From assembly GCA_028687715.1 (NCBI GenBank), contig JAQTZP010000003.1:73521-122340 (forward strand): a stretch of DNA of 48,820 nt, in the 5' to 3' direction. This document shows positions 1,654 to 26,328 of this stretch, one piece after another; the stretch's first letter is position 1, and every line of letters begins with the position of its first letter. This stretch comes from Minisyncoccota bacterium. Lineage in GTDB: Bacteria > Patescibacteriota > Minisyncoccia > Minisyncoccales > GWA2-38-27. The notes beneath the pieces were generated by a model. The model was not told the origin of the DNA, made no database searches, and was given only the letters and a program-made list of their open reading frames with translations. A program made the position numbers and the translations under genes.

Positions 1654-2650
1654 AGCTTTTTTTAATAAGCCAATACATAACCCCAATAAACCCAAGCCAT
1701 AATAAGACCCAGAGATACCAGGTTTTAACAAGCCAGACAAAGAAGGATTGTTTGGACTCAGAAGGCTCTAAGGTCAGCTTTAAGGCATCAGAGCTTTTAA
1801 AGTCTTCTATCCTTATATCAGATAATATCTCTTTATCTGTTTTGGATTTAATGTCTTTTGAGGCTTCTATATCAAGTGTTATTCTCTTTTCTGAATTAGA
1901 AGATACATACCCTATATTTATCTCTTGAGAGATATCCTGTTCTATTTGATTATCTGCTATCTTTATAATCCCCTTGTATCCAATCTCTTTGGGAAGCTCT
2001 AGTTTAAGGTAGACATTGTCTATATCTTCTGACTTATTGTTTAAAACTATTATTAGTATCTCTGCTTTTTCACCTGATTTTAAGCTTAGAGATTCCTGCC
2101 ATTGAGAGAGATCTGATTCTTTCTTTGCGAATATGGATACAGATACGTCTATTTCCCTGCAGTCTTGAGGGCAGGTTGTTTCATCTTCATCGCAGTTGCA
2201 GATATTATCAGGGCAGTGCTGCTCGTTATTGCAGTAGTCTGTGGAGGAGCCGTCATCGGGGGGAAGCTCAGGCTGAGACGGAGGCTGAGGCTGAGGAGGC
2301 TGGGGCTGAGGATTGCAGGTCTCATCGTCTATACAGCTGTAAAGGCATTCACCGCCCGAACAATACCAGCTTGGTCTCTGGGTATTTGAGCAATTTTCAT
2401 AACCGCAGGAATTATCTATCAAGCAGGATATAGGTTCAGACCACTCAAAACAAGGGTCATCATCATAGTTTTCCCCGCAAATCTGCTTCTGGGTGCTTGA
2501 AGCGCATCTTTTCTGGCCGATAAAAGAGCATTCATCATAGCAGAGAGCAGAAACATCTATCATAAGGAAAAAGCTTAGAATAAAGATAAAGATGAGATTT
2601 AAGGCTAAAAACCCTTTGTTAATTTCTAACATTTTAGAACCTATAATCAT
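1646..2650 (-). CDS. cysteine-rich repeat surface protein, paralog 4 (1 module, Pro/Gln linker, C-terminal TM anchor)
   Basis: 334 aa with an N-terminal hydrophobic signal/anchor. It has one Cys-rich module (CYDECSFIGQKRC..QICGENYDDDPCFEWSEPISC..NSCGYENCSNTQRPSWYCSGGECLYSCIDDETC) followed by a PQPQPPQPQPPSQPELPP linker. The C-terminal ~195 aa are essentially identical to those of 6120-7868. Confidence 0.85.
   Translation of the reverse strand: MIIGSKMLEINKGFLALNLIFIFILSFFLMIDVSALCYDECSFIGQKRCASSTQKQICGENYDDDPCFEWSEPISCLIDNSCGYENCSNTQRPSWYCSGGECLYSCIDDETCNPQPQPPQPQPPSQPELPPDDGSSTDYCNNEQHCPDNICNCDEDETTCPQDCREIDVSVSIFAKKESDLSQWQESLSLKSGEKAEILIIVLNNKSEDIDNVYLKLELPKEIGYKGIIKIADNQIEQDISQEINIGYVSSNSEKRITLDIEASKDIKSKTDKEILSDIRIEDFKSSDALKLTLEPSESKQSFFVWLVKTWYLWVLLWLGFIGVMYWLIKKSYE
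1670..2265 (-). repeat. 596-bp near-identical dispersed repeat, copy 1 (3' coding end of paralog 4)
   Basis: Direct comparison with 6144-6739 at a constant offset of 4474 nt. I saw one mismatch (a/g near 1685/6159). Identity stops abruptly at 2265/6739. Confidence 0.9.
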
Positions 2651-2655
2651 TAAAG

Positions 2656-5358
2656 TTATTCAGATTTTTTAAATAATTGATAAAATAGAAAGGCTAAAAC
2701 TAATAATATCAGTATCAAAAGATAATACCATTTCTTTATAAATCCCCAAACGCCTTCATCTTTTTTCATCTCTTCAATAGCAACGTTCATAGAATCAGAA
2801 CTTAAAAAGTCAGCTACCCTAGCGCTGCCGATAAGCTCTATCTTGGTGTTTAAAACAGCATTTGGAGAAACCTCTCCTTTGAAAGTAATTCTCTTTTCTG
2901 AGTTGGCCGACAAAAACCCTATATTTATCCCCTCTGTAATATCGCCCTCTATCTGGCTGTCTCCAATCTTTAACTCTCCTTTATAAATTATTTCCTTGGG
3001 AATATCTGCTTTTACAATGACGTTATCAAAATCTTCAGTAGTATTATTTAAAACAGACAATAAAATATCTACTTTCTCTCTCAGCCCCAGACCAATATCT
3101 TTTTTCCATTCCAAGGGATCCTGTTCTCTTTTTCCGTAAAGAAGGATATTTAGACTTAAAGAGCCGCAGTCATTGGGACAGCTGTTGTTATTCTCTCCGC
3201 AATTGCACATGCCGTCCCCGCAATGGTTTTGTTTCTGACAATAATCAGAAGAATCTCCTCCTTTCTTTGCGACACAGCTTGAATCGCTGACGCAGTTATA
3301 ACTGCAGGTTCCGTTAAAACAATACCAGCTCGGTCTTTGGCTGTCAGGACAAACTCCGTATCCGCAGGAAATATCTCCTGTGCAAGCCTGATTTGCGCCC
3401 CATTCCAAGCAGGAATCCGTATCGTAATTTCCGCAGGTCTGTTTATTATTGCCTGAACAGCGGGTTTGTCCGCTTGGAGAGCATTCGCTGACGCAGGAAG
3501 AAGGAGGGAAGGCGCAGGTTGAATCCTCGACACAATTATACAGACAGCTCCCTCCTAAGCAGTACCAGCTGGGCTTCTGGGAGTCTGAACAATTCCCGTA
3601 TCCGCAGGAAGTATCGCCGACACAGGAAATAGTATTGCCCCATTCCAGACAGGAATCAGCGTCATAATTGCCGCAGGTCTGCTTATTTGAACCCAAACAT
3701 CTTAGAATCCCTGATTGAGAACATTCATTAACGCATAAGGTACCGCAGGTTGAATCACTTACGCATCTGTAATAGCAGGCTCCTGAAGAACAATACCATT
3801 GAGGTTTTTGGCTGTCAGAGCATGTTCCGTAGCCGCAGTAAGTATCTCCTGCGCATAAATCAGGCAAAGACCACTCAAGACAGGTATCTGAATCATAGTT
3901 TCCGCAAACTTGCCTGTGGCCGTCATCAGAACATCTAGTTTGGCCAGAAGAGCATTCTGAAGAACAGCTTTCATTACAGGTTGAATCATCAACGCAGGTA
4001 TAAGCGCAGCTGCTGCCCGAACAATACCAGCTTGGCCTTTGGCTGTCATTACAAGTTCCGTATCCGCAGGAAGTATCGCCGGTACAGGCTGTTGTATTGC
4101 CCCATTCCAGACAGGAATCAGCGTCATAATTGCCGCAGGTCTGTCTATTATTTCCGGAACACCTGGTAGCGCCTATTGTAGAACATTCATTTTCGCATGA
4201 AGGAGCACAAGTTGTATCATAATAACAGCTGTATAAACAAGTGCCTGAATCGCAAAGCCATCTTGGTCTTAATCCGGTAAAACAATCTGGTCCGCAGCCG
4301 CATCTTCCATAACCGCAGGAAGTATCACCAGTACAAAGTATGGGAGCTGACCACTCCAGGCATTCATCGCTGTCATAATTGCCGCAGGTCTGCTTATGAG
4401 TTTCGTCAGAGCATCTAATCTCAGTGGCAACGCATTCATTCTGGCAGGTTATAACGCAGCTCGGGTCATTAGTGCAATTATACGTACAGCTTTTTCCAGA
4501 ACAATACCATATCGGCTTTTCACTATCAGTGCAGGTTCCGTACCCGCAGGAAGCATTGCCGGTGCAAGTTATAGGGTCTCCCCACTCAAGTTCAGGATCA
4601 GAATCATAGTTCCCGCAGATTTGATATTTTGTATTATCAAAACACTTAGTATCGTTTAAAATAGAGCATTCTCCCTCTGAAGGAGTACTGCATAAAGCAT
4701 CGTAACTGCAGTCATAATAACACTCTGCCACATCTCCCATTTGAGAACAGCGCCAGGTAGGCTTTTCTAAATCAGAACAAGTTCCGTACCCGCAGGATGT
4801 ATCAGTCCCGCAGGGCTGAGATGGAGACCATTCCCAGCAGTCGTCATCATCATAGTTTCCGCAAGTCTGCTTATTGTAGCCGTCAACGCACCTTATTCCT
4901 CCGACAAAAACGCAATCATCTATGCATACGCCGTCATCTGGAGGGCTTGGACTGGAAGTCACTAAAACATTTAAAGAGATAATTTGAGAATATTCTTCCA
5001 GCCAGCCGTTAAAATACTTGCCTACAACTTGAGCTTGATAGGTATAAAAGCCGGGAGCGCTTTCAGTTATTACCCACTGCCTTTCTGTTTCAGCGCCGGA
5101 TACATTAACCCAGTGCCAGCTGCCCTGATAAGATTGTCCTATTCTATTTAACCCGTTGCAGTCTTTTCCTCTTATGGTGATTGTTATCGGTTCTCCAACC
5201 GCAACTGTTTGAGTGGGCGGAGAAACTGACCCGTAAATCTCAACAGCGTATTCTAAATTTGGAGAAGGAGGCGTACAAAGATATTCAGCAGAACAAAAAC
5301 TATCTGCGTAAAACAAAAGGATTAATAATGATAAGAATATAAGATTAGATTTTTTCAT
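2656..5358 (-). CDS. cysteine-rich repeat surface protein, paralog 3 (7 modules)
   Basis: 900 aa. Order of parts: signal peptide, ~100-aa beta-rich N-domain (VGEPITITIRGKDCNGLNRIGQSYQGSWHWVNVSG..PGFYTYQA), seven ~75-aa Cys-rich modules, a CGDGMCNCGENNNSCPNDC knot, a ~110-aa beta domain, then a C-terminal TM helix with tail KKSE. Confidence 0.9.
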   Translation of the reverse strand: MKKSNLIFLSLLILLFYADSFCSAEYLCTPPSPNLEYAVEIYGSVSPPTQTVAVGEPITITIRGKDCNGLNRIGQSYQGSWHWVNVSGAETERQWVITESAPGFYTYQAQVVGKYFNGWLEEYSQIISLNVLVTSSPSPPDDGVCIDDCVFVGGIRCVDGYNKQTCGNYDDDDCWEWSPSQPCGTDTSCGYGTCSDLEKPTWRCSQMGDVAECYYDCSYDALCSTPSEGECSILNDTKCFDNTKYQICGNYDSDPELEWGDPITCTGNASCGYGTCTDSEKPIWYCSGKSCTYNCTNDPSCVITCQNECVATEIRCSDETHKQTCGNYDSDECLEWSAPILCTGDTSCGYGRCGCGPDCFTGLRPRWLCDSGTCLYSCYYDTTCAPSCENECSTIGATRCSGNNRQTCGNYDADSCLEWGNTTACTGDTSCGYGTCNDSQRPSWYCSGSSCAYTCVDDSTCNESCSSECSSGQTRCSDDGHRQVCGNYDSDTCLEWSLPDLCAGDTYCGYGTCSDSQKPQWYCSSGACYYRCVSDSTCGTLCVNECSQSGILRCLGSNKQTCGNYDADSCLEWGNTISCVGDTSCGYGNCSDSQKPSWYCLGGSCLYNCVEDSTCAFPPSSCVSECSPSGQTRCSGNNKQTCGNYDTDSCLEWGANQACTGDISCGYGVCPDSQRPSWYCFNGTCSYNCVSDSSCVAKKGGDSSDYCQKQNHCGDGMCNCGENNNSCPNDCGSLSLNILLYGKREQDPLEWKKDIGLGLREKVDILLSVLNNTTEDFDNVIVKADIPKEIIYKGELKIGDSQIEGDITEGINIGFLSANSEKRITFKGEVSPNAVLNTKIELIGSARVADFLSSDSMNVAIEEMKKDEGVWGFIKKWYYLLILILLVLAFLFYQLFKKSE
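3260..4925 (-). repeat. in-frame tandem coding repeats, period ~230-250 nt (seven Cys-rich modules)
   Basis: The landmark ccgcag(g/a)tctg (encoding Q(T/I)CGNY on the minus strand) recurs near 3433, 3671, 3900, 4131, 4381, 4610 and 4858. The protein repeats are clearly visible in the translation. Confidence 0.8.
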
Positions 5359-6115
5359 ATTTTTTAAAGAAAAAATAAATAATAAATATAGTTAATGAAA
5401 ATAGAATAAAATACCAGTAATTAGTCAAGAAGCTAAATATATCTATTTTTTCTTTGCAGTCTGAAGGACAGGTGTTTTTATCTTCATTAGAATCGCAGAT
5501 ATTATTACCGCATTTAGAATAAAGAGATTCTGATGATTTATTCTGATTCTCACAGCTTGAATCATTGATGCAGTGGTATTTACATTCTCCTTCAGCGCAG
5601 TACCAGTTTGGTTTCTGATTATCCCTGCAGTCTCCGTAACCGCAGGAAGTATCACCGGTGCATAATTCATCATCGCTCCATTTTATACAAGGGCTGTCAT
5701 CTTTTAACTCGCAGACCTGCTTATTTCTATTGTCAGAACAGCGGGCCTCTCCAATATTAAAACATTGATCTCTGCAGACATCAACGCTTAGGCATCTTTC
5801 TACATAATCTGAACCGTTGTTAATATGAGCGCAGTACCTGTAAACAGCTGGAAGACTTTCTGTAAATGTCCAGCTCTTTTGAGCGTAGAGGTCAGAAACA
5901 TTATCCCAGTGCCAGACTCCTTGATAGTAAGCACCGATTTTTATCAAAGGTTTTGAACAATCAGGGCAATAGCCTCTGACATTTATTGTTATCGGCATGC
6001 CTATCTTAACCTCCAAAGGAACCACTTCAAAACTCATTGACATCTTAGCAGAACAGATATCTGATATAAAGAATAAAGATATTATTAAAAATAGAATTAA
6101 ATTATTAAGCTTCAT
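5345..6115 (-). CDS. cysteine-rich repeat surface protein, paralog 2 (1 module)
   Basis: 256 aa with a signal peptide and the same N-domain (GMPITINVRGYC..IKIGAYYQGVWHWDNVS..PAVYRYCA). It has one module (CRDQCFNIGEARCSDNRNKQVCELKDDSPCIKWSDDELCTGDTSCGYGDCRDNQKPNWYCAEGECKYHCINDSSC), a CGNNICDSNEDKNTCPSDC knot and a C-terminal TM helix. Its stop overlaps the start of 2656-5358 by 14 nt. Confidence 0.85.
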   Translation of the reverse strand: MKLNNLILFLIISLFFISDICSAKMSMSFEVVPLEVKIGMPITINVRGYCPDCSKPLIKIGAYYQGVWHWDNVSDLYAQKSWTFTESLPAVYRYCAHINNGSDYVERCLSVDVCRDQCFNIGEARCSDNRNKQVCELKDDSPCIKWSDDELCTGDTSCGYGDCRDNQKPNWYCAEGECKYHCINDSSCENQNKSSESLYSKCGNNICDSNEDKNTCPSDCKEKIDIFSFLTNYWYFILFSLTIFIIYFFFKKYEKI

Positions 6116-6119
6116 AATT

Positions 6120-7868
6120 CTATTCTTTGCTTCTTCTTAACATCCAATACATAACCCCGATAAACCCAAGCCATAATAAGACCCAGAGATACCAGGTTTT
6201 AACAAGCCAGACAAAGAAGGATTGTTTGGACTCAGAAGGCTCTAAGGTCAGCTTTAAGGCATCAGAGCTTTTAAAGTCTTCTATCCTTATATCAGATAAT
6301 ATCTCTTTATCTGTTTTGGATTTAATGTCTTTTGAGGCTTCTATATCAAGTGTTATTCTCTTTTCTGAATTAGAAGATACATACCCTATATTTATCTCTT
6401 GAGAGATATCCTGTTCTATTTGATTATCTGCTATCTTTATAATCCCCTTGTATCCAATCTCTTTGGGAAGCTCTAGTTTAAGGTAGACATTGTCTATATC
6501 TTCTGACTTATTGTTTAAAACTATTATTAGTATCTCTGCTTTTTCACCTGATTTTAAGCTTAGAGATTCCTGCCATTGAGAGAGATCTGATTCTTTCTTT
6601 GCGAATATGGATACAGATACGTCTATTTCCCTGCAGTCTTGAGGGCAGGTTGTTTCATCTTCATCGCAGTTGCAGATATTATCAGGGCAGTGCTGCTCGT
6701 TATTGCAGTAGTCTGTGGAGGAGCCGTCATCGGGGGGAACGTATCCGCAGGAAACGCTGTTCTGACAGCTGTATTTGCATTCTCCATTAGAGCAATACCA
6801 GCTCGGCTTCTGAACATCGCTGCAGATTCCATAGCCGCAGGAGGTATCACCAGCACATACCTCATCCTGGCCCCATTCCAGACAAGAATCAGCATCATAA
6901 TTGCCGCAGGTCTGAAGCTTTCCCCCGCTGCATCTTGTCAGGCCGCTCACAGAACACTCATTAGCGCATAAAGGGGCGCAGATTGAATCAGCTACGCATT
7001 CATAGACACAGTTTCCCTGAAAACAATACCAACTGGGCTTTTGGCTTTTATCGCAGTCCCCGTAGCCGCAGGAAGTGTCACCAACGCAGCTCTGAAGTTC
7101 AGTCTTCCACTCAAGACAATCATTTTCATTTCTGTCGCAGATTAACCTGTAATTTCGGTCATAACACTTAGTTTCTCCCTCCCTAAAGCACTTATTATTT
7201 GTATCGCAAGCCTGCAAAGGACTTCCCGGGACACAGCTGTAGCTACAGCTGTTATTGGAACAGCGCCATAAAGGGACATAATAAGAAATGCCTCCGCTTG
7301 AAGGACAAGACCAGATAGAGCCGATGCTCCCGCAAATTATAGGATTTGACCATTCAAGACACAAATCGGTGTCATAGTTGCCGCATCTTTGATAATACTT
7401 ATCATCATAGCATCTAACTTGAAAGTAAACTTCAGAACATTCATTGGTGCAGCTTGAACCTAAAACAGTTAAATCCAAGCACCTTTCCTGGGACTGCTCC
7501 TCGGTTCTATCCAGCAAAAAGCCGATTGCCTTAGCGCAGTAGCTGTAAGTTCCTGGAGAATTTTCAATTACGGTCCATGTCCTTGAAGCAATTGTTCCAG
7601 ACACGCTTTCAAAATGCCAGCTGCCCTTGTAAAAAGCTCCTATTTTCGAAAGTCCGTCCTTATCTTTTCCTGTGACTGTGATAACAACAGGCTCTCCGGG
7701 ATTTACAAACTTCTTACTTAAAGAAAATTCAACGTAAGTTTCATCGTTAGCGGCATAACAATATGAGATATAAAAAAAGCTGGCAATTAAAAAACAGCTG
7801 AATAAAAGAATTCTAAAAGTTCTTTTTAAACAAAGAATGTTTTCTCCTGTCAGATATTCTATTTTCAC
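6120..7868 (-). CDS. cysteine-rich repeat surface protein, paralog 1 (3 modules, first degenerate)
   Basis: 582 aa starting at GTG (revcomp of cac at 7866-7868). It has a signal/anchor, the N-domain (GEPVVITVTGKDKDGLSKIGAFYKGSWHFESVSG..PGTYSYCA) and three Cys-rich modules. The C-terminal block is shared with 1646-2650. Confidence 0.85.
   Translation of the reverse strand: MKIEYLTGENILCLKRTFRILLFSCFLIASFFYISYCYAANDETYVEFSLSKKFVNPGEPVVITVTGKDKDGLSKIGAFYKGSWHFESVSGTIASRTWTVIENSPGTYSYCAKAIGFLLDRTEEQSQERCLDLTVLGSSCTNECSEVYFQVRCYDDKYYQRCGNYDTDLCLEWSNPIICGSIGSIWSCPSSGGISYYVPLWRCSNNSCSYSCVPGSPLQACDTNNKCFREGETKCYDRNYRLICDRNENDCLEWKTELQSCVGDTSCGYGDCDKSQKPSWYCFQGNCVYECVADSICAPLCANECSVSGLTRCSGGKLQTCGNYDADSCLEWGQDEVCAGDTSCGYGICSDVQKPSWYCSNGECKYSCQNSVSCGYVPPDDGSSTDYCNNEQHCPDNICNCDEDETTCPQDCREIDVSVSIFAKKESDLSQWQESLSLKSGEKAEILIIVLNNKSEDIDNVYLKLELPKEIGYKGIIKIADNQIEQDISQEINIGYVSSNSEKRITLDIEASKDIKSKTDKEILSDIRIEDFKSSDALKLTLEPSESKQSFFVWLVKTWYLWVLLWLGFIGVMYWMLRRSKE
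6144..6739 (-). repeat. 596-bp near-identical dispersed repeat, copy 2 (3' coding end of paralog 1)
   Basis: Partner of 1670-2265; see that entry. Confidence 0.9.
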
Positions 7869-7943
7869 GTTAAATGATATTAACTTGTTATTATGATTAT
7901 TATAACATTATAAAGATAAATTAGAAGTTAATAAAGATATAAG

Positions 7944-7975
7944 AAAAAATCCCACCTGATTTGGTGAGATTTTTC
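7944..7975 (-). terminator. Rho-independent terminator downstream of the SIMPL gene
   Basis: The minus strand reads aaaaatctcacc-aaatc-aggtgggattttttc: a ~10-bp stem with one mismatch followed by a T-run, about 20 nt after the stop at 7997. Confidence 0.6.
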
Positions 7976-9910: not shown

Positions 9911-12853
9911 TTATTTGTTCCAGCCTATCCAGGCCTGATGTGAATCTATTTTAATCTCTTTTGATATTTCTATATCTTCTAACTCTTTCTCAATAACTTC
10001 AATCTCTAAAATGCCAGTTGTGTCTAAGATAACTTCTTCATTGTCTTTAAAAACGCTTATTATCTCCTTTGGAGCTTTTACCAATAGCTTTTTTATCTTA
10101 TCTTTTGGCTGGTAACTGAATTTCTTTCTTAAATCCTGGATATTTCTGATTATCTCCCTTGCCATCCCTTCTTTTTTCAACTCTTCTGTAATAAAAGTAT
10201 CAAGCTCAACTTCTTTTTCAATCTTATCATCAAAAACTATTTCTTTGACATTAACTTCTTCTTTAATAAGAGAATTAAGCTCTTCTTCTTTTATTTTTTT
10301 ATCTTTTATTTTTAACATAGCTAATGGTTGACGTATTTTTATTTTCGCCTCCGTCCTTTTAGAAAGAACAAGTTCGACAATCTTTCTTATATGCCTCATC
10401 TTTTTCTCAATTTTTTTGTCTATTAAACCACTATTGGGCTTCGGGTAATCACAGAGGTGAACCGATTCTGAAGAAACTATTCTAAGTTTCTGCTTACTGG
10501 TTTTTGCATCCATCTTGAGTGACTGATATATATATTCAGACATAAAAGGAATAAAAGGAGCCATTAATTTACTTATAGTAACTAAAATTTCATAAAATAT
10601 TTGATAATTTTCGCTTTTTTCTTTTTTATTCTTAGGATTCTGAAACTTTTTGCGCGAACGTCTAATATACCAATTTGAAAAATCATCAATAAACTCATCG
10701 AAAAGTCTAATTGCTTTTGTAAGCTCATATTGTTCCAAGTAATAAATTACCTCTTTATTTAATCGATTAAGCCGAGAAATTATCCATCTATCTAACAGAT
10801 TAATTCTTTTAACTCTAAGAATATCTTTAGGTTTAAAATCTTTATCTTTATAAGTATTAAAGAAACAGAAACTATGCCATAAGGTACTAATAACCTTTCT
10901 GAAAACTTCTTCTACTCTTTCAGAAGAAAAACGATAATCCTCGCCGACGGGAGTTGAGGTCAAAAGAAAATATCTTAAAGAATCTGCTCCATAACGATTG
11001 AAAATCTCGCTAGGCTCAGGATAATTTTTTAATTTCTTGCTTAATTTTCTTCCCTGAGCATCTAAAATTAAGCCATTAACAATAACATTTTTAAAAGCTG
11101 GTTGCGATTTTTTTAATCCTATATTTTTTAAAGTAAGTGCGGTTGCAATAACATGAAGTGTGTAAAACCAACCTCGGGTTTGATCTATCCCTTCGGCAAT
11201 AAAATCAGCAGGAAATGTTTCTTCAACTAAACTCTTATTCTTGAAGGGATAATGCCATTGCGCGTAAGGCATAGATCCCGATTCAAACCAACAATCAAAA
11301 ACCTCAGAAACTCTTTTCATTATTCCTTTATTGCAATTTCCGCATTTAAAAGTAATCTCATCAATATAGGGACGATGCGGATCTTTTATTTTTCTTTTGC
11401 TCAATTTTTCTAATTCCTTAAAAGAACTAATTATCTTAATATTTTTGCATGTCTTACATTGCCAAATTGGTATTGGCGCTCCCCAAAAACGATTTCGGGA
11501 AAAAGCCCAATCTTTTACGTCTTCCAACCACATACCAAATCTTCCTTCTTTAACATGATAAGGTACCCAAAGAATTTTTTTATTGTTTTTAATTAATTCT
11601 TTTTTAATTTTTTTAACTGCAATATACCAGGTTTCTAATGCGTAATAGATTAAAGGAGTATCACAACGCCAACAAAAAGGATAGGAATGTAAAACTTCTT
11701 CCTCATTATATAAAAGAGCTCTTTTGGATAAATCATCAATAATTTTAGAATCAACATTTTTAATAAATTGTCCAGCGAATTTACCTGCTTCTGTTTTGAA
11801 GAATCCTGATTCATCTATAAGATGAATTAAAGGTAAATTAAATTTTTTCCCTAACTGAAAATCATCATCACCATGCATAGGTGCTATATGAACGATACCG
11901 GTTCCCTCTAATAAACTTACGAAAGAAGCGGGTAAAACCTTAAAACCATTCTCTATATTTTTAATCTTTGTTTTTTTAAAAAAATCAAAAATAGGTTCGT
12001 ATCTTAAGCCAATAATATCCCTGCCTGAAATTTTTTTAATCACTGAATAATGCCCTTTTAAGACTGATTTTCGTGATTGAGCTAAAATTAAATTTTCATC
12101 TCCTTGTTTAACTATAATATAATAAGATGTCGGATTAATTGCTAAGGCCAGGTTGTTCGGTAACGTCCAAGGTGTTGTTGTCCAAACTAAAAAAAAGGAG
12201 TTTTTAAAGCTTGAATCCTTAATTTTAAACTTTAAATAAATTGAGTTTTCTTTTATCTCTTTATATCCTTGATTAACTTCAAAGTTAGAAAGAGGAGTGC
12301 CGCACCTAGAACAATAGGGAGAAACCTTATAATCCTTATAGACCAAGTCTTTTTCCCAAAGCTGGTACAAAACCCACCATACTGATTCGATATAATCTCT
12401 TTCCATAGTACTGTATGCTTTTCTATAATCAGCCCAACGACCAACCCTTTTTAATATTAACTCAAAATCTTTGACACAGCGGAAGACAGAAGCCCTGCAT
12501 GCTTGATTGAACTTCCCGATACCGAATTTTTCAATCTCTCTTTTGTTTTTAAAGCCGAGTTCTTTTTCAATTAAATTTTCGACAGGAAGGCCATGACAAT
12601 CCCATCCAACACGACGGCTAACATTATATCCTCTCATTGTTTGATAACGTAAAACCGTGTCTTTAATAGTAGTTGCTAAAATATGACCATAATGAGGTTT
12701 ACCGGTAGCAAAAGGAGGTCCATCATAAAAACTAAATTTTGAGCTGTTTTTCCTTTGAGAAATTGATTTCTCAAAAATCCTATTTTCCCCCCAAAATTTA
12801 AGGATTTTTTCTTCTATTTCAACAAAAGATAAGTTTTTATTTTTATTCAACAT
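9911..12853 (-). CDS. ileS: isoleucine--tRNA ligase (type 2-like)
   Basis: 980 aa. The HIGH region is PPFATGKPHYGHIL and the KMSKS-like region is RKLSKKLKNYPEP. An editing domain and Zn-like CxxC pairs are present. Confidence 0.9.
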   Translation of the reverse strand: MLNKNKNLSFVEIEEKILKFWGENRIFEKSISQRKNSSKFSFYDGPPFATGKPHYGHILATTIKDTVLRYQTMRGYNVSRRVGWDCHGLPVENLIEKELGFKNKREIEKFGIGKFNQACRASVFRCVKDFELILKRVGRWADYRKAYSTMERDYIESVWWVLYQLWEKDLVYKDYKVSPYCSRCGTPLSNFEVNQGYKEIKENSIYLKFKIKDSSFKNSFFLVWTTTPWTLPNNLALAINPTSYYIIVKQGDENLILAQSRKSVLKGHYSVIKKISGRDIIGLRYEPIFDFFKKTKIKNIENGFKVLPASFVSLLEGTGIVHIAPMHGDDDFQLGKKFNLPLIHLIDESGFFKTEAGKFAGQFIKNVDSKIIDDLSKRALLYNEEEVLHSYPFCWRCDTPLIYYALETWYIAVKKIKKELIKNNKKILWVPYHVKEGRFGMWLEDVKDWAFSRNRFWGAPIPIWQCKTCKNIKIISSFKELEKLSKRKIKDPHRPYIDEITFKCGNCNKGIMKRVSEVFDCWFESGSMPYAQWHYPFKNKSLVEETFPADFIAEGIDQTRGWFYTLHVIATALTLKNIGLKKSQPAFKNVIVNGLILDAQGRKLSKKLKNYPEPSEIFNRYGADSLRYFLLTSTPVGEDYRFSSERVEEVFRKVISTLWHSFCFFNTYKDKDFKPKDILRVKRINLLDRWIISRLNRLNKEVIYYLEQYELTKAIRLFDEFIDDFSNWYIRRSRKKFQNPKNKKEKSENYQIFYEILVTISKLMAPFIPFMSEYIYQSLKMDAKTSKQKLRIVSSESVHLCDYPKPNSGLIDKKIEKKMRHIRKIVELVLSKRTEAKIKIRQPLAMLKIKDKKIKEEELNSLIKEEVNVKEIVFDDKIEKEVELDTFITEELKKEGMAREIIRNIQDLRKKFSYQPKDKIKKLLVKAPKEIISVFKDNEEVILDTTGILEIEVIEKELEDIEISKEIKIDSHQAWIGWNK

Positions 12854-12930: not shown

Positions 12931-14108
12931 TCATTCATTTGAATATGCCGCGCAAGCAAATGGATCCTTTCCATAAATATTACCATTTAAATAGGCTCGT
13001 CCCCTACATCCTCCATGACAAATATCAAATTTGGAACATTTACCACAAATAGTATCTTTATAAATGAAATTCTTAATAGGATTAAAGATTCTACCCGGTT
13101 TTTTATAAATATTGATTAATTTTCTTTTATTTATACTTCCTAGTTTAAAATTAAATAGCAAAGGACAAGGATAAACATTGCCCTCTGAAGAAATGTAAAG
13201 AACATCTTTACCTGCTTTACATAACATTTCAGAGCTACAATTTTTCGGCAAAATAGATTGATCATATCCGGAATTATAATAATTTTTTAATTCTTTTTTA
13301 AGTAATAATAAATCTTTATTCTTATTAACTCTGCCCATTTCTGTAATTGGAGCTGTTACTAATAACTTTACCCTTATTCTCTTACAGAAGTTTCTAAACT
13401 TTTCGTAGGAAGGAATACTTTTTTTATAATACATCATTCTTACAACTACTTCTATATTATTCTTCACTAAAGACTTTATATTATTAACAGTTTTATTAAA
13501 AGTATCCTTACCTCTAATATATTCATGGCTTTTTTTAAAACCATCTAGACTTACTATAATTCGTGCAACTTTAAACTTCTTAAAGTTGTTAATTAATGAA
13601 TTATTAATTAATAATCCATTCGTAGAAATTGTAATTTGAAAATTTAGATCTCGGCAAAATTTTAAAATCTTAGAAATATCTCTATGTAAAAAAGGTTCTC
13701 CTCCTGTAATACTAATTAAAAATCCTCCTAATTTTTGAAATCGAAGAGAATTTCTTTTATTTTATCATAGCTCAATTCTGTAATCGGAAATTCACTCCAT
13801 AGACAGTGACGACAATTTAAATTACATCTACTAGTAATTTGCAAATCAAGTTTTTCTAACTTTCCCTGATTATAAGGTAAATCACTAAATCCCTTTCGAA
13901 TAAATTCATATTTTTTTAACTCGTTATATAAAAATATTTCCTCTTTATTTAATTTATTTAATGATTTTTTAGCGATTTTTTCTAATAATTGAAGAGTATA
14001 AGGATTTATTTTAATAACAACATTTGATGTTAATCCATACAAATAGTAGTCTTTACCTTTTCGTTTTATTAAAAAATTTAAATATCTCATAAATTTTAGA
14101 GAAAACAA
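12931..14108 (-). pseudogene. radical SAM/SPASM peptide-modifying enzyme with RRE-like N-terminus, interrupted by a 1-nt frameshift
   Basis: ORF 13728-14108 carries a PqqD/RRE-like N-terminus (DYYLYGLTSNVVIKINPYTLQLLEKI..EEIFLYNELKKYEFI) and the radical SAM cluster motif CNLNCRHC. The -1 frame continues without stops (LGGFLISITGGEPFLHRDI..ITISTNGLL..VSLDGFKKSHEYIRGKD) into ORF 12931-13467. That ORF ends with a SPASM motif (CGKCSKFDICHGGCRGRA). The break lies at the T5 run 13732-13736. Confidence 0.8.
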
Positions 14109-14220
14109 AAAAAATCCGTCAATAAAAATGATTTTGACTATTAATTTTTAAATTAAGTTTTTCAGTTGTATTAATAACTATTTCTTCTAAATCAGAAATA
14201 TTATATTATGATAAAAAGTT

Positions 14221-14373
14221 CTAGCAAGCACACCCAAAGGCATCGCAACCAAAGACTATCATTGATCTTTTTTGTTCAAACCTTTCTTCTATTTTTTCAA
14301 ATACAATTTTTCCTTTTTCTTCCTTATCATTTAATCTTGTCTTCCTATCTGGCTTTTTGTTTGTTGTACTCAT
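14221..14373 (-). CDS. candidate RiPP precursor peptide (50 aa, Cys-rich C-terminus)
   Basis: Own translation gives MSTTNKKPDRKTRLNDKEEKGKIVFEKIEERFEQKRSMIVFGCDAFGCAC*. It is below the length cut-off of the ORF track. It lies 112 nt upstream of, and co-directional with, the radical SAM/SPASM gene. No clear SD precedes it. Confidence 0.55.
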   Translation of the reverse strand: MSTTNKKPDRKTRLNDKEEKGKIVFEKIEERFEQKRSMIVFGCDAFGCAC

Positions 14374-14465
14374 AATAATTTGTTAATTATTTTTTATTAA
14401 TCGACTTTATTTAAAGAAAATATCTTTTTCTATTCTTTCTAATTTTGGAAAATCAAGCATGGATT

Positions 14466-15035
14466 TTAGTTAATTCTTCGAAATTGTCCTGTTTTGATTA
14501 ATTTATCTGATGTATACACTCTGAAGATATCCAAATCATCAATATCTTTTATCTTAGCTTCAATAAAAGTAAGGGGTATCTGGTGACTGATGATAAGAAT
14601 CTTTTTATTGGTGTATTTTCTATCTGTATCAGTTAGAAAATCCATTACTCTTTCTATTATATCTTTATACGTCTCTCCTTTTTGAGGCTTTTTTTCAAAG
14701 CGCTCTTTAGGGTTTTTTAGAAATCCTTGGTATTCATCAATAGGCCTTGCATTAAAAACCCCGACATTATACTCTCTCAGCCTTTTATCATATGTTGGTT
14801 TTATTTCAAGCTCATAAGAAACAATCTCGGCTGTTTGCTTTGTCCGCAAAACATCTGAAGAAAAAATTAAGTCTATATTCTCCTTTTTTAATTCCTTTGC
14901 AGATAACTCTGCCTGTTTTTTCCCTTTTTCAGTTAAAGGAAATACTCCTTTTTCAGGCCAGGAAGATATAATGTCCTTTACATTAGACAATGCCTCTCCA
15001 TGGCGCATAATGTAATAAGCGTTTTTGAGTTTCAT
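14466..15035 (-). CDS. histidine phosphatase (phosphoglycerate mutase) family protein
   Basis: 189 aa with the N-terminal catalytic RHGE motif (YIMRHGEALSN) and a later SH motif (LIISHQIPL). Confidence 0.8.
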   Translation of the reverse strand: MKLKNAYYIMRHGEALSNVKDIISSWPEKGVFPLTEKGKKQAELSAKELKKENIDLIFSSDVLRTKQTAEIVSYELEIKPTYDKRLREYNVGVFNARPIDEYQGFLKNPKERFEKKPQKGETYKDIIERVMDFLTDTDRKYTNKKILIISHQIPLTFIEAKIKDIDDLDIFRVYTSDKLIKTGQFRRIN

Positions 15036-15125: not shown

Positions 15126-15683
15126 TTACTCGGTGAATTTAAAAGTAGAGAGCATCTGGTTTAAAACATTATCTTGTTCAACAAAATTACGTTCATCTGG
15201 TTTATAAATTATTTTAGGGAAAAGTTTATAAGCAATTCCATCACGGATAGCGCAATATTGCACCTCGTCATAAGGTTCACATTTTAATCCGCAGCCAATT
15301 CCTTTAAATGTAATTCCACCTAAAGAAATATCCTGAGCATCTGCGCTCCAAGCGGTTTTATAACATTCGTCAGATTGAGCTCCTGTTACTACTTCTATAT
15401 TAAGTTGTCTTTGTCCATCTGCAAAAATAAAAGAAATACTTTTATCAAGTTCTTTTATTTGAGTGCCGATTAGATATTCTATTGAGAATCTGTAATTAAC
15501 GTTTGTGTATGTCTTCCAGTCAGATGTCTGATCTATTTCGGTATTTGAGGTTTTTGTTGGTTCTTGATTTAGAACATAGTAATACTGATAAGCTAAAGTT
15601 ATCCCAGCTACTATTACAGCTAAGACTAAGATAATTCCTATTGCTAAAGGAGTAGATATTCCTTTGTTTAGATAAGATTTCAT
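15126..15683 (-). CDS. secreted/anchored hypothetical protein with conserved KG-ISTPL N-terminal cassette (family member 1)
   Basis: 185 aa. The N-terminal 34 aa MKSYLNKGISTPLAIGIILVLAVIVAGITLAYQY are identical to those of 16287-17123 and 28259-29392. The C-terminus ends NQMLSTFKFTE. Confidence 0.75.
   Translation of the reverse strand: MKSYLNKGISTPLAIGIILVLAVIVAGITLAYQYYYVLNQEPTKTSNTEIDQTSDWKTYTNVNYRFSIEYLIGTQIKELDKSISFIFADGQRQLNIEVVTGAQSDECYKTAWSADAQDISLGGITFKGIGCGLKCEPYDEVQYCAIRDGIAYKLFPKIIYKPDERNFVEQDNVLNQMLSTFKFTE
15581..15683 (-). repeat. 103-nt 5' coding cassette, copy 1
   Basis: Identical over 103 nt to 17021-17123 and shows 2 mismatches to 29290-29392. The ~6 nt upstream of the ATG (aaacat) are also shared. 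Confidence 0.9.
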
Positions 15684-16286: not shown

Positions 16287-17123
16287 TTACGGAGTATTAA
16301 ATAACTCAATCGTAGAAACTATCTTATCAAAGGTATTATACCAGATCTCAGCTTCTGTTTCAGAAGATATAATTCCATTGGCTAAATCGTTATAAAATTG
16401 ATTTTGATTAGCCCAGATTAAGCTGTCACCGCAACTTTCTTGGTTAGTTTCAAAATATTGCGGCAATTCAGTTTTAATCTTATTTATCGCCCATGCCTGA
16501 AGACTTACAACGATTTTATAGCTATTTTTAAAGAATATGAGTTCTCTTGTTGGAAGTACATTGCAAATATCAATCTGACCCAAGGTCGTAAATTCTTTAC
16601 CCCATATCTTGTCGTCAATTTTTACCACCTTTTGTGATGCTTTCAGAGAAAATGGAGGCGAGTATCCAAATTGTCCATTTTTCAAACTTTCTTCATCTTG
16701 TAAAGCTATTTCCTTAGTATATCCAAGTATAGAAGGAGGATATTCATCACTCATATCGCTTATTTTTTCTCTATCAATACTAAAAACTAAATAATCTGAT
16801 TTAAACCCCCAAGTATTTGGCGGCAGTCCAGCTGCAGATACCGCTGGCAAAATAATTCTTGTAATATTCTCACTTATTTTATTTGCGCTTACTTGTTCTG
16901 CTTTTAAGTCAGGAGGATATTTTAAAGAATAGCCAACTTTATCATCTGTAAAAACCTTCCAATCTGCAAATTCATCTTTTTGAGTTTCTTCAAGTTCGAT
17001 CTCTGCCTTAGGAACCCACCAATACTGATAAGCTAAAGTTATCCCAGCTACTATTACAGCTAAGACTAAGATAATTCCTATTGCTAAAGGAGTAGATATT
17101 CCTTTGTTTAGATAAGATTTCAT
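16287..17123 (-). CDS. secreted/anchored hypothetical protein with conserved KG-ISTPL N-terminal cassette (family member 2)
   Basis: 278 aa with the same 34-aa N-terminus. It ends FDKIVSTIELFNTP, equivalent to the ..LSTFKF motif of the paralogs. Confidence 0.75.
   Translation of the reverse strand: MKSYLNKGISTPLAIGIILVLAVIVAGITLAYQYWWVPKAEIELEETQKDEFADWKVFTDDKVGYSLKYPPDLKAEQVSANKISENITRIILPAVSAAGLPPNTWGFKSDYLVFSIDREKISDMSDEYPPSILGYTKEIALQDEESLKNGQFGYSPPFSLKASQKVVKIDDKIWGKEFTTLGQIDICNVLPTRELIFFKNSYKIVVSLQAWAINKIKTELPQYFETNQESCGDSLIWANQNQFYNDLANGIISSETEAEIWYNTFDKIVSTIELFNTP
17021..17123 (-). repeat. 103-nt 5' coding cassette, copy 2
   Basis: See 15581-15683. Confidence 0.9.
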
Positions 17124-17152: not shown

Positions 17153-20100
17153 TTATTTAAAAATAAACTCTTTAACTCTTTTAATAAACTCATTAACAGC
17201 AGTAAAGATACTTGCGAATTGATTCTCTAAGTTATTTAACTCTACTGTCTGATTAGGCTTTTCAATAAACCCATAAGTGGGAACATTTTTAACGCCGTAA
17301 ACCTGAATCTCATTTACATGCCTCCAGTCTCTTCCTGACGATGCCTCTATGGTAATCTTTCTTACTTTAGCTTCATAAGGAAGCTTTTCTGAAAAGGGAA
17401 TGCTGTTTGCTGAGTTATAGGGACGAGATAAAACCGTATTGCCTGATGAGTCATAAAAATAAATGGTTCCAGAATTGCCTCCATTTGTTCCCTGGCACAT
17501 TATTGAATAACCAGAGACCCAGTATTCATCCATTAAATCAATATACAAGTGGGCTTTGCCGGTATTAGTGTCTGAAGTATCTCCGTATCCTTCTGCGCTC
17601 CACCAGGTAGAATTATTGCCGTCTACTGCATATTTAGGACTTTCAGGCTTTCCGTAATCAGAGGCAGCTGGCTTGTTCAAAGCTATGTTAATATTGTAAG
17701 ACTTGTAATCATTCTTTATCTCTTCTGCCGTTAAACCATAATTATATAATTTAACCTCATCTATTAACCCATCAAAGTAATTGCTTCCTATGAGTCCTCC
17801 TATGGTTAAAGATGAACCTTTATCAGTATATGAGTAGTATTGGGTAAGTGTTTGGGAATATGCTCCGTCTATATAGATATGCCAAGCCTTAGAAGTATTA
17901 ATATTAACTGCCACTATATCATATTTATGCCAGTTAGTGTCTATAGCAGTATTAGTGCTTCTGGTTGAGACAAGCTTGTATCCTCCATCAGAGCTTGTAA
18001 ATATGCTCCATTTATCAGTTGAAGCAGGAATATATACAGCCCACATTCTCTTGTTTGTGGCATAATCCCACATAGAGATGGGATAGGAGTTAATAGCATA
18101 ATCACTCTTGTTTGATTTGGCCCAGAAGCTGATGGTCATTATGTCTGAATATAATGAGGGGTGGTATGGGATCTTTACATAATCATCTATTCCATCAAGC
18201 TTTATTGCTTTGCCTGATTTGCCTTCTGTATATTCTGGATTCCCAGAGGCTGTTCCGTGGTTTGAACCAGAAGAATCTTGGGTGTTGTTTTCGAATTTGT
18301 AGTGAGAGACTAAAGAAGAGCCTAAAATTGTAAAGGGCATCTCATTGCTTTTTCCTCCTGAAGGCGTAGTAACGCTTATGTATTTTATCTCTGGCTTTGC
18401 ATCAGCTGAAATTATATACCTGGCGCTCATTTCTGTATCAGAGATTTCCCCGCATAACTCAAGCTTAAAATCTTTATCAAGCAAAGGAGAAAGTCCGCAG
18501 CCATTAAGAGAACCTGCTCCTTTGAAATTCTCTCCCCTTATCGTAATATCCACCATTGTTCCTTGTTTTGCCTCTGATGGCGAAATACCTATTATTTTTG
18601 GCTGTTTAGTAGGACCTGCCGAAGCCTTAGTTAATCTGCCTGCTTGTATGCCTCCTCTAAATATTATATCGGCATGGTTATAAGGACCATAGTTAGAATC
18701 TCCCTTAATAATTCCCCAGCTGATGTTATTGGGCGAATCGTCTATAAGGGATAGTTGAATAGAATCCCCTTCATCTTCAAATTGTTCCATATTTCCATAA
18801 ACATATATTTTCCTGACTTCATAATCGGGAATAATAATGCCGTTTTGCTCAAAATTAAAGGTAATAGTACCGGTTACTATTCCTCCTGCCAAATGAACGT
18901 TTCCTTCTGTTGAATCAAGCGTTTGACCATTCTCGTCTTTAAGGGTAAAACTTAATGGCTGATAATCTGTATCTCTAACACGACCTTCTACATCTATTGT
19001 TATAAGGCTATTCAATAATTTATCAAAAATGATGCTATCTCCTTTACCTCCTGCCTCTATACCGATAGCCACCCCCCTGTTTGCTATATTAAAAACAGCT
19101 AAAAGAGTATCTTTAGCAGGGATAAAATCACCGCTTGGCGAATCAGCGCTTTTTGAGAGATAAGGTCTAGTACTGTATACATACATTAAATCAGCGCTGG
19201 CAGTATCATTTGAGTCTACTGATCTCCCAGATGTTATTTTAGTTGCTTCAACTTTAGAAATAGAGACTTGGATAGAAGTTCCGTTCTTCACGATATCGTT
19301 ATCAGTATATTTAACAATGCCGGCTATTGTAATTACCTTACTTTCATTAACAGGAATAGTAAGGGCATTATTCTCAAAACTAACAGAAACGTAATCATCG
19401 GAAGAATAAATCGATTCTAATAATTTATTCCCGTCATAGAAAAATAATCTATCAATAGCTAAACTATTTAATACATTCAATTGAATCTTATCTAAATCCA
19501 ATGCTTCATCAGAATTATTAGAAATATTAAATTGTCCTAAAATAGCATAATATCCTCCCATTATTATATCGCTTAAAGGTGAAGAACTGTCTGTTTTAAC
19601 AGATAAGCTATGCTCAATATCAACACAGGTCCCATTGTAGCAGGCTTTGCCTTCAGGACAAGAACCGCAATTAATCTGATTTCCGCAGCCATCATCCCAA
19701 CTTCCGCATTCTTTGTTTAACTCTAAACATGTTTTAGAATAACAGAAGCCTTCATAATCTTCTTTAATTTTTTCTGCTGTTAAACCATAATTATATAACT
19801 TTACCTCATCTATTAATCCATCAAAGTAATTGCTTCCTATAAGTCCTCCTATGGTTAAAGATGAACCTTTGTCAGTATATGAGTAGTATTGGGTTAATCT
19901 TTGTAAGTAAGAACCGTCAATGTAGAAATCCCAGGTCTTGTTAGTATTGTTTACAACTATATCGTATTTATGCCAGTTAGTGTCTATAGCAGTATTAGTG
20001 CTTCTGGTTGAGACAAGCTTGTATCCTCCATCAGAGCTTGTAAATATGCTCCATTTATCAGTTGAAGCAGGAATATATACAGCCCACATTCTCTTGTTAG

Positions 20101-23100
20101 TGGCATAATCCCACATAGAGATGGGATAGGAGTTAATAGCATAATCACTCTTGTTTGATTTGGCCCAGAAGCTGATGGTCATTGTATCTGAATATAATGA
20201 GGGGTTGTATGGGATCTTTACATAATCATCTATTCCATCAAGCTTTATTGCTTTGCCTGATTTCCCTTCTGTATACTCTGGATTCCCAGAGGCTGTTCCG
20301 TGGTTTGAACCAGAAGAGTCTTGGGTGTTGTTTTCGAATTTGTAGTGAGAGACTAAATTACTGGTATATCTTCCGGTGCGCTGATTATCATGCATAAAAC
20401 TAGGCCAAGTAATATTTTTGCTTTTATACTCTCCATCTAGTTCCCATACATATATACTATTTCTTAATTTACTTTTTACGAAATCACGATCACCATCAGA
20501 ACTTGCAATTAATTCTAATTTTCCATCATTATCAATATCAGCTATTACAGCAGGAGCTTCAGCCCAAATTTCTGCATATTTTGGAAAACCATTTACTTCA
20601 GTTCCATTAAAATTCCAAGCATAAACATCAGTCCCAGTAGTTGTTAAAATATCTAAAAGATTATCATTATTTATATCTCCCATAATAGATGAATAATAAC
20701 TGTCCCATCCAGTATATTCAGGCCATCCATTTAATAAAGTTCCATCATGGTGAATTAGATACGTGCTATAACCTAATTGATTAACTGCAATCTCTAAATC
20801 CCCATCGTTATCGATATCGCCCAATGAAGGAGTAGACCAAAATAGCTCACCTTTTCGAAAAGGAAATCCAGGAAGAATATTACCGTTTCTATCAAAAGCA
20901 TAAAGTCCTCCGTATCTCGGATCATACCCTACATTGCTTGAATATAATAACCCGACAACAATATCTTCCTTTCCATTATTGTCAATATCAGCGACCACTG
21001 GAGAAGAAAAAATCTCTCCTGGCACCAGACGCGGCCACCCAGATACTATGGAGCCGTCTAAGTTATAAACATAAATTATTCCTTCATTTATCCATTCATT
21101 CTTGCTGTAATCAAAACCTGCTTTTTCAGAAGGACCTGCTGAAACAATTTCTAATTCTGGATCATTATCAAAATTACCTACTGCAGGAGAAGAAACTATC
21201 GCTGCACCAAAGGTAATGGGAGGTAAATTCCATTGAGAAATTATATTGCCATTTTTATTAACAATAACCATTTTTTCGCTTTTAGCGTCATTGCCTTTAA
21301 ATACAATCTCTTTGTTGCCATCTAAATTCAAATCAGCCATAAGCATTGTTGGTTTTAATTCCTCTGAAGGCATTGAGGCAGACCACAATAAAGAACCATC
21401 ATGATTATAGACATATAATCTTCTTTGCGTATAATTATATTCAATAATCTCATCATAGCCATCATTATCAATATCTCCCACTAAAGGAATAGGGATATTT
21501 AGGCCTGTCAGATATTCATTGTTAGCGCCAAATACAGCCTTCCATAATAAGTCTCCTTTATGATTATAAACAAGAATTTCAGGCTTTCCTCCTTTCGCTA
21601 CAATTATTTCTTTATAGCCGTCTTTATTAATATCCGCTGCAACCGGTTCAAGAAAACCTGCCCAATGATAATTTGTACTGTAGTAGTCTGTTAAATTAAT
21701 ATTTTTAGATTCATCAACTTTTATTGTATTTACACTATTTGAATTATTAATTCCATTTTTATTATTGGAAATTAAAGTAAAAAATTTAGAATTAGTCAGT
21801 ACCTGACTTCCAAACTGTTGGTTGTAAAAATCATAATTAACATATTGAGGCCAGCCTTTTTTTAATGTAGGATCTAAATGAATATAATCTATATATTTTA
21901 AAAAAAATGTGTTATCATTTTTAATTAAAGTTAACTTTATCTTATAATAACCAGCAGTAGTTATTTTTGAAGTATCCCAACTAGCCAAAACGCCTTCAAT
22001 AATAGGTTTTGTCCCTCCGTCTATAAGGGTTATTCCTTCAGAACTCCAGACTGAATAAGATATATTTTCATATTCAATTTTATAATTCTTAAAATTAGGA
22101 CCTGGTGCAGTTCCTCTTATTTGGATTATATCTCCCGCCCTAAAAACATCATTGTTTAAAGGAAAAATTAACTTAGGAGCTAAATCCAAAGTTATATTTG
22201 AAGTTGTAGTTTTTTCCGAGGTAATAATTACCTTTGTAGTTTTATCTAAATAATCTTCTTTTGTTACTTTCAAATCCCTCATCCCTGGAAGCAGTTCGGT
22301 TAATAAAGGAGTTTTTCCCAGATAAACAAATTTTCCTGTATCTAAATGTTTAACAAAAACATTGGCATCTGAGGGCTTAGAGGTTATAGATAATTTTCCC
22401 GTATTTAAATAATCTATCTCTAAAGCCTTATTTATATTCACCCTTCCAGCGCCGATATAATATCTATCTTCATTTGAGGCATCAACGCCTTCTTTTAAAA
22501 TCATTTCTACCTGGTTAACCGTCCAATTAGACTTTTTAGATAAGATTAATCCAGCTAATCCAGCAACATAAGGCGTTGCCATTGAAGTACCAGATAACTT
22601 CCAGTAGCCATTAGCAACTTTCGAAAAAGGATTCTTAATCGCTATTTGACTGTCGTCTTTCATTGTTGAGATAATATCTACTCCAGGAGCAGCAACATCG
22701 GTTAAGTAGCCGAAACTGGAAAACCATGCCCTTTTATCCTGCGAGCTGGTAGCTGCCACAGAAATAACGCCGTCATAACACGCCGGATAAAGTACAGATT
22801 CGTAACTATCGTTTCCTGCAGCAGCAACTAATACTACATTTTTACTATACGCATAATCTACAGCGTCTCTTATTGTATCCGAATCATCATACCCTCCAAA
22901 ACTCATGCTTATCACATTAGCCCCATTGTCTGCGGCATAATATATTGCATTGGCAATCTCAGAATCTGCTAAGCCCGCTGCCCTCAAAGACATAATTCTA
23001 CAATTATGACAAACCCCTGCTATTCCCTTTCCATTATTTGAAACTCCTGCGGCAATACCCGCGCAATGAGTTCCATGGCCATACTCATCCATTGGATTAT

Positions 23101-26315: not shown

Positions 26316-26328
26316 CATTATAAATTTA

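Follow-up and report, generated by a model that had tools for sequence, protein, structure and literature searches.

A pair of genes on the minus strand of contig JAQTZP010000003.1 (GenBank assembly GCA_028687715.1, a Minisyncoccota bacterium) encodes a short cysteine-bearing peptide and, downstream of it, a radical S-adenosylmethionine (SAM) enzyme. Both lie within a stretch of 48,820 nucleotides (positions 73,521 to 122,340 of the contig), hereafter called the window, to which all coordinates refer unless another contig is named. An earlier reading made from the letters of this DNA (the sequence-only reading) had proposed the pair as a candidate minimal locus for a peptide that is made on ribosomes and then modified post-translationally (RiPP), a proposal which the co-conservation of the two genes and the relationships of the enzyme now support.

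The precursor peptide gene is an open reading frame (ORF) of 50 codons at 14221..14373 (minus strand), recognized by its translation and by homologous ORFs. Reading from 14373 to 14221 yields MSTTNKKPDRKTRLNDKEEKGKIVFEKIEERFEQKRSMIVFGCDAFGCAC, exactly the peptide quoted earlier. Residues 1 to about 40 would form the leader, with the conserved block IVFEKIEERFEQKRSMIV, and the putative core delimited by family alignments covers about residues 41–50, FGCDAFGCAC (14224..14253, minus strand), directly followed by the stop codon. Across the family C43, F46 and C48 are invariant, giving the core motif C-x-x-F-[G/A]-C, while the terminal A-C is absent from two lineages. The N-termini are Lys-rich and variable. 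A leader consensus, I-x-F-x-E-I-K-E-x-F-E-Q-K-R-S-M-I-V, is common to the peptides, and the invariant pattern S-[M/T]-I-V-x-x-C-x-x-F-[G/A]-C stands at the C-terminus or two residues from it. Since the chance of an open 50-codon stretch from one ATG is ~0.026 at this base composition, the small ORF would by itself be weak evidence, and it is its conservation that carries the case beyond chance. Searches of NCBIfam and Pfam with the peptide gave no meaningful match, a profile search of 5.8 billion proteins returned matches confined to these cassette peptides, and no further precursor copy was found in the window.

The maturase gene begins at the ATG at 14090, the start used by all homologues (MRYLNF... 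or MKYL...), so that the spacer between the two genes (14091..14220, minus strand) measures 130 nt. The gap of 112 nt given by the sequence-only reading holds with a TTG start at 14108, but not with this shared ATG. The gene is present as two fragments on the minus strand. The 5' fragment (13728..14090) encodes an N-terminal domain resembling a RiPP recognition element (RRE; ~14090..13866) together with the first part of the radical SAM core, and ends at a TAG (13730..13728). The 3' fragment (12931..13741), in the -1 frame, encodes the rest of the core, including GGEP, and the SPASM domain. Both cysteine motifs named earlier were located, CNLNCRHC (CX3CX2C) at 13826..13803 and C-x2-C-x5-C-x3-C at 13047..13006. 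In Pfam the enzyme matched Radical_SAM (PF04055, E 4e-22) and SPASM (PF13186, E 6e-7) and nothing else. The full seven-cysteine SPASM pattern (C-x9-15-G-x4-C ... C-x2-C-x5-C-x3-C ... C) is present, and its elements CKAGK...EGNVYPC, CGKCSKFDICHGGC (the C-x2-C-x5-C-x3-C segment) and the final FAC are conserved throughout the family.

An AlphaFold model was made of the intact homologue P0002 (predicted local distance difference test score 90.3, predicted template modelling score 0.90). Its best fold matches in the PDB are the peptide maturases SuiB, SkfB and CteB (E ~6e-20 to 4e-19), with alignments to SuiB and CteB that span 420–450 columns; PqqE (9e-16) and the anaerobic sulfatase-maturating enzyme (anSME; ~1e-13 to 1e-14) rank below them. 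A sequence search of the PDB gave a similar picture, with SkfB at 4e-17, SuiB at 9e-15, CteB at 2e-13 and anSME at 5e-12. Moreover, the family conserves the first ~80 residues of the enzyme, which in the model form three strands and then three helices, a short one flanked by two long ones (beta3-alpha3). When this N-terminal domain was compared in isolation, its top fold matches were the RRE domains of McbB, leader-bound TbiB1, lasso-peptide B1, MccB, PbtF and CteB, and RRE domains from six RiPP systems made up about half of its top 20 PDB matches.

Conservation of the gene pair

A search with the repaired enzyme returned five close relatives with 61–75% identity and 385–390 residues, one of them a 316-residue fragment at an assembly gap; the next match is only ~30% identical. 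The loci compared are the contigs of these relatives and two further JGI/ENA contigs, all from public metagenomes. A homologous small ORF lies directly upstream of every orthologous radical SAM gene found (6/6 lineages, ~25 contigs), which is the conservation that the sequence-only reading had set as its test. In all six lineages the precursor gene precedes the radical SAM gene on the same strand, at a distance of 90–157 nt in a spacer whose sequence is not conserved. The peptides end in ...KIVFEKIEERFEQKRSMIVFGCDAFGCAC in the window, ...KIIFEEIKESFEQKRSMIVAGCSAFGCAC in L001 and L016, ...KIVFEVIKERFEQKRSMIVAACSAFGCAC in L022, ...KILFEKIRENFEQKRSMIVLNCDAFGCAC in L011 and L020, ...EILFREIKESFEEKKSMIVSKCSEFAC in L002 to L009 and ...KIMLKEIKQNFEQRRSTIVIKCKDFAC in L010 (L numbers denote the contigs compared).

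The substitutions are those of coding sequence. In the conserved block of the peptide the proportion of nonsynonymous differences (pN) is 0.19, compared with ~0.69 for synonymous differences (pS), the synonymous sites being saturated; the indels that separate the peptide genes are in frame, and the position of the stop is kept across lineages. For the enzyme, dN/dS between lineages is 0.08–0.18, indicating that it has been under purifying selection. The precursor and the enzyme are thus a conserved two-gene cassette, probably for peptide modification, with a narrow spread in a few groundwater bacteria of the candidate phyla radiation (CPR). A scan of GTDB representative genomes found no close relative, the only hits being radical SAM enzymes 26–29% identical in Acetobacterium and in a metagenome-assembled genome (MAG) of Leptospirales, and literature searches turned up no description of this peptide or enzyme family.

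Beyond these close relatives, a hidden Markov model search with the enzyme, exhaustive over 1.84 billion representatives, found one cluster at E 4.5e-211 and a second tier at E 1e-72 to 1e-54, consisting of proteins of ~390 residues that match from end to end, N-terminal domain included. The three second-tier loci fetched (enzymes P0246, P0247 and P0248; contigs L027–L031) all have a short ORF upstream of the enzyme gene that encodes Cys close to its end. In the first (L027–L029) this ORF ends ...LPILCRPGIGCDYPPG, and the enzyme, P0246, has lost the CX2CX5CX3C motif; in L030 it ends ...DSDYCT and a GNAT acetyltransferase gene lies downstream; in L031 it contains three repeats of AAHCDSCDSVKY and lies beside a second radical SAM gene. 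This pattern fits the usual radical SAM RiPP families with subfamily-specific precursors, and it favours a Cys-based chemistry.

Decay of the maturase gene

The enzyme gene of the window is split by a 1-nt deletion in a run of five A (A5; 13732..13736, minus strand), where every homologue has one more base (AAAAAA, AAAAAG or AAGAAA). Frame 1 ends ...KEILFDFKN at the premature TAG, and the protein goes on in the -1 frame as KLGGFLISITGGEP...; homologues encode F-K-K-L/M-G-G at this site (TTTAAAAAGTTAGG, TTCAAAAAAATGGG, TTCAAGAAATTAGG and TTTAAAAAACTAGG), compared with TTCAAAAATTAGG in the window. By speaking of a "repaired enzyme" the sequence-only reading had hinted at a break, but it did not spell out the frameshift at the A5 run. 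The Logan contig L012, from an independent assembly and found in two samples, is 100% identical over 2.3 kb and has the same A5, with reads that are possibly shared with the window assembly; its gene caller also split the enzyme. The window therefore holds no intact, translatable maturase gene.

Two ways of bypassing the lesion were considered. One, a programmed -1 frameshift or slippage of the transcribing polymerase at A5, was rejected as the default: a canonical slippery heptamer has the form X-XXY-YYZ, which the site C-AAA-AAU-UAG does not match, and five A are too few for efficient slippage. Re-initiation after the TAG was likewise set aside, there being no ATG, GTG or TTG near an internal GGAGG; the second frame offers no start before the GTG at 13467.

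Decay was also observed in a sister lineage. The contigs L001 and L016 are 99.5% identical, and their radical SAM genes (L001 810-1976 vs L016 421-1587) differ at seven positions, all seven non-synonymous or nonsense and six of them G:C-to-A:T transitions. These changes convert the third Cys of CX3CX2C into Tyr in L001 (CX3CX2Y), and in L016 they turn a CAA into a TAA stop and GGEP into EGEP. The flanks (~1.6 kb) show only four substitutions and one small indel block, and the peptide gene is unchanged. At the historic omega of ~0.1, seven non-synonymous differences out of seven have a probability of ~1e-4 (calculated from dN/dS site counts), which indicates that constraint has been relaxed in this lineage. 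In the L002 type, by contrast, 17 contigs drawn from many samples all encode the same, undamaged enzyme.

Given that its maturase gene is frameshifted, the cassette has most likely been inactivated recently in the window organism, where, judging from the genes, it is probably dead or dying. Some populations thus appear to keep a functional cassette, while it is decaying in others, among them most probably the window's.

Genomic context and host

In the window the cassette lies between a His_Phos_1 gene of the phosphoglycerate-mutase family (HisPhos; 14466..15035, minus strand), which bounds the insertion site upstream, and ileS (9911..12853, minus strand), which bounds it downstream; both genes are outside the cassette and share its orientation. 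The two nearest ileS relatives (L023–L026) have the order argS-HisPhos-ileS with a HisPhos-ileS gap of 4–11 nt and no cassette. Where the cassette is present, it is found at this junction or next to it, in either orientation: L001 and L011 have it inverted at the same junction, and L002 and L010 have it convergent with ileS. Its absence from the closest ileS relatives indicates that the pair moves as a unit and was inserted into a housekeeping operon, and within the argS-HisPhos-ileS operon the two genes act like one mobile or invertible element. A search for insertion or inversion repeats around the cassette gave only AT-rich chance matches, with no flanking repeats.

The isoleucyl-tRNA synthetase of the window is at most 66% identical to any database entry, and its named relatives belong to Nealsonbacteria, Minisyncoccales, Pacebacteria/Paceibacterota and Microsyncoccus. 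These relatives point to a CPR host of the Paceibacteria, Paceibacteria/Minisyncoccales-like, in agreement with the CPR origin suspected earlier.

Some further arrangements were observed at these loci. L002 carries two tandem ileS-like class-I aminoacyl-tRNA synthetase (aaRS) genes (1978-7954; 973 and 963 residues), and upstream of its cassette lies a third gene that is aaRS-like. The ileS product of L010 (1791-5212) includes a His_Phos_1 domain, and the gene caller assigned its C-terminal DUF5915 part to an overlapping gene of its own, which could reflect a fusion or a frameshift. Elsewhere in the window, the neighbouring genes at 15126-15683 and 16287-17123 (both minus strand) share an identical N-terminus of ~34 residues, MKSYLNKGISTPLAIGIILVLAVIVAGITLAYQY, a hydrophobic, anchor- or signal-like segment after which they diverge completely. 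A subtilisin-like ORF of 2228 residues with S8-type motifs (17153-23839, minus strand) has a long internal duplication, the segment starting SLVSHYKFENNTQDSSGSNHGTASGNPEYTEGKSGKAIKLDGIDDYVKIPY being present twice. A tmRNA (25962-26318) and a tRNA (39295-39377) lie on the plus strand.

Candidate function, alternatives and known systems

Taken together, these observations make it likely that the locus is a two-gene RiPP-type cassette, consisting of a precursor and a single RRE-like/radical SAM/SPASM maturase, of which the copy in the window was most likely inactivated recently. In such a cassette, the winged-helix domain at the N-terminus of the enzyme would dock the conserved leader, and the [4Fe-4S] cluster bound by CX3CX2C would cleave SAM reductively to generate a 5'-deoxyadenosyl radical. 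The radical would then abstract a hydrogen from one of the residues that make up the C-terminal core, C-x-x-F-[G/A]-C(-A-C), and the two auxiliary clusters of the SPASM domain would assist in forming an oxidative intramolecular cross-link. The likeliest product would be a sactionine- or ranthionine-like Cys-S thioether, possibly onto the invariant Phe; in subtilosin-type sactionines, a Cys thioether is formed onto Phe. We put forward such a Cys-S-to-carbon thioether as a tentative best guess, because two Cys and one Phe are the only residues of the core that never vary and because Cys thioethers are the products of two among the three closest solved enzymes. An MftC-type reaction at C-terminal residues or a cyclophane on F-[G/A]-C would be alternatives.

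Several points weigh against this interpretation. The type of cross-link is a guess, and no protease or transporter was found in any of the cassette loci compared, as had been noted before for the window, where ileS and His_Phos_1 are the adjacent genes. Moreover, the enzyme reaches no curated NCBIfam cutoff, peptide-maturase models included: the best of these, WgkB, gives 134 bits (cutoff 650), and it is followed by AhbD (116 bits, cutoff 500), NirJ (111 bits, cutoff 515), MftC TIGR03962 (100.9 bits, cutoff 265), the sactipeptide maturase StsB NF045574 (92.6 bits, cutoff 625) and PqqE (81 bits, cutoff 381), with no SCIFF or ranthipeptide maturase model among the best 25 matches. The RRE matches of the N-terminal domain are weak (Foldseek E 0.13–1.7, probability up to 0.94, TM score 0.5–0.6), and no sequence-level RRE signal was detected in it with Pfam PqqD (E ≤ 10), a PDB profile search or hhalign, the last giving a probability of 1% against PqqD-bearing homologues. 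The structural model thus supports the PqqD-like N-terminus proposed by the sequence-only reading at the fold level only, and the domain is tentatively RRE-like. Finally, disabling lesions occur in three of the seven distinct enzyme alleles (the window, L001 and L016), and current function is doubtful in two of the six lineages.

The first alternative to be considered is that the peptide gives rise, inside the cell, to a cofactor like mycofactocin or PQQ, or to a small redox- or metal-binding factor; the enzyme would modify its extreme C-terminus, and the product would stay in the cell. The absence of an exporter or leader protease at any locus would suit such a product, as would the position of the cassette inside a housekeeping aaRS operon and that of the invariant residues at the very C-terminus, where the key residues of MftA are likewise found. 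The MftC model also aligns over the whole radical SAM and SPASM length (residues 89–383), but its ~101 bits fall far below the cutoff given above. Furthermore, the only neighbours are aaRS and HisPhos genes, with no mftB/D/E/F-like or pqqB/C/D-like gene nearby; the peptide ends ...GCAC or ...FAC and has neither a C-terminal GVY nor an E-x3-Y; and the repeated inactivation of the enzyme, together with the absence of the cassette from the closest ileS relatives, indicates a dispensable accessory trait. A cofactor precursor thus appears unlikely.

We also weighed whether the small ORF could, instead of encoding the substrate, control the radical SAM gene, either as an upstream ORF with a regulatory role or as conserved RNA or DNA that is non-coding; the enzyme would then act on something else. 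A conserved box does lie just upstream (14396..14412, minus strand; AAATAAAGTCGATTAAT in the window, TAAAGGTCGA in relatives), 33–53 nt before every precursor ATG (window, L001, L002, L010, L011 and L022) and downstream of promoter hexamers resembling TTGACA/TAAGAT. In three of the six lineages (L001, L022 and L011) it forms part of a hairpin loop, and the arms of that hairpin remain complementary although their sequences vary (TCGTTG/CAACGA, CTCATTAG/CTAATGAG and CTATATATTA/TAATATATAG); no stable hairpin was found around it in the window or in L010, and it does not recur in the rest of the window. The box and its hairpins imply that regulatory RNA features exist in the region, and the box may be a 5'-untranslated or operator element. 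The spacer contains a promoter-like TTGACG-18-TAAAAT (14122..14093), such sites being no commoner than chance, and a scan for promoters and terminators did no better than shuffles on the relevant strand. The precursor ORF has no Shine-Dalgarno motif, which could be taken to favour a non-coding element; this is uninformative, however, because only 3 of the 27 large ORFs of the window have such a motif within 25 nt of the start, the genome largely initiating without one. The small ORF itself is conserved at the amino-acid level, with the pS and pN values, in-frame indels and fixed stop described above; gene callers predicted it independently in several assemblies; and an unconserved spacer of 90–157 nt does not fit attenuation coupling. 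A purely regulatory role is therefore very improbable.

Least credible of all is a non-RiPP enzyme (an anSME, or a heme or d1 enzyme of the AhbD/NirJ type) with a small ORF beside it by accident, a placement that the sequence-only reading had named as one that would refute it: although AhbD, NirJ and TIGR04053 are among the top NCBIfam matches (111–116 bits) and anSME is a clear fold match, the scores are 3–5 times under the curated cutoffs, those enzymes do not have the conserved N-terminal domain of ~85 residues, SuiB, SkfB and CteB outrank them by fold and sequence, the sulfatase motif C/S-x-P/A-x-R is absent from 6/6 peptides (the cores CDAFG, CSAFG, CSEFA and CKDFA have no Arg), and the pair is co-inherited through inversions.

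The two-gene RiPP-type cassette therefore remains our preferred explanation. A bolder version of it, which we consider possible but rather unlikely, is a previously undescribed RiPP class of CPR bacteria (Patescibacteria) in which one RRE-radical SAM-SPASM enzyme makes a new cross-link, such as a Cys-Phe thioether or a C-terminal-Cys macrocycle, on a core of 6–8 residues; release of the product would need no protease or exporter of its own, its targets would be the host or the competitors of these episymbionts, and the repeated, independent knock-outs would be a sign that selection switches a costly interaction factor on and off. The genomes of Patescibacteria are tiny, and one recent MAG study reported zero biosynthetic gene clusters in its Patescibacteria genomes (PMC11613949). 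A minimal pair of this kind would be a tractable two-gene route to the peptide natural products or peptide-derived factors of uncultivated episymbionts, and it might reveal a new radical SAM cross-link on a very short core. The locus also offers a clear picture of gain and decay, with insertion into an aaRS operon, orientation flips and independent inactivation in at least two lineages, the last of which tempers any claim that the window organism makes the product.

Among known systems, mycofactocin (MftC/MftA) likewise relies on a SPASM radical SAM enzyme that acts on a short peptide, at its extreme C-terminus, and TIGR03962 aligned over its full length. There, however, the RRE is a separate protein, MftB; the genes mftD, mftE and mftF have no counterpart here, and MftA ends ...G-V-Y, compared with ...F-[G/A]-C(-A-C). 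Streptide maturation (SuiB/StrB, PDB 5V1Q/5V1T), which installs a Lys-Trp C-C cross-link, provides the best overall fold match (E 6e-20, TM score 0.70, ~450 columns) and shares a short precursor and, with a putative RRE here, the RRE-radical SAM-SPASM layout. The streptide core has a Lys/Trp pair, whereas the core here has none and its invariant residues are Cys and Phe; WgkB, whose cutoff the enzyme misses, is the SuiB-related model.

The enzyme of the sporulation killing factor (SkfB/SkfA, a Cys-Met sactionine, PDB 6EFN) is the best PDB match by sequence and a top match by fold. Its product has one thioether within a short core, and it may be the best model for the C-x-x-F-G-C core. The N-terminal domain of SkfB is of another kind, however, and its auxiliary domain is twitch-like, not a full SPASM. 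The skf operon also encodes export, immunity and a protease, and the cassette here has no gene for any of these.

Thermocellin maturation (CteB/CteA, a SCIFF-type ranthipeptide, PDB 5WGG/5WHY) combines RRE, radical SAM and SPASM with two auxiliary clusters in one polypeptide, a layout that the enzyme here, with its putative RRE, probably shares, and in both systems a short Cys-bearing precursor adjoins the enzyme gene. The fold match is at E ~3e-19 and the sequence match at 2e-13, with identity of ~14–20%, and the RRE of CteB recurs among the matches of the N-terminal domain. CteA has six Cys, whereas the precursor here has two or three and no SCIFF signature (six Cys in about 45 residues). 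No NCBIfam SCIFF or ranthipeptide model is reached at its cutoff, and the thioether here is putative. Overall, the locus is best described as a narrowly distributed addition, in CPR bacteria, to the well-known class of cassettes made up of a precursor and an RRE-radical SAM-SPASM enzyme.

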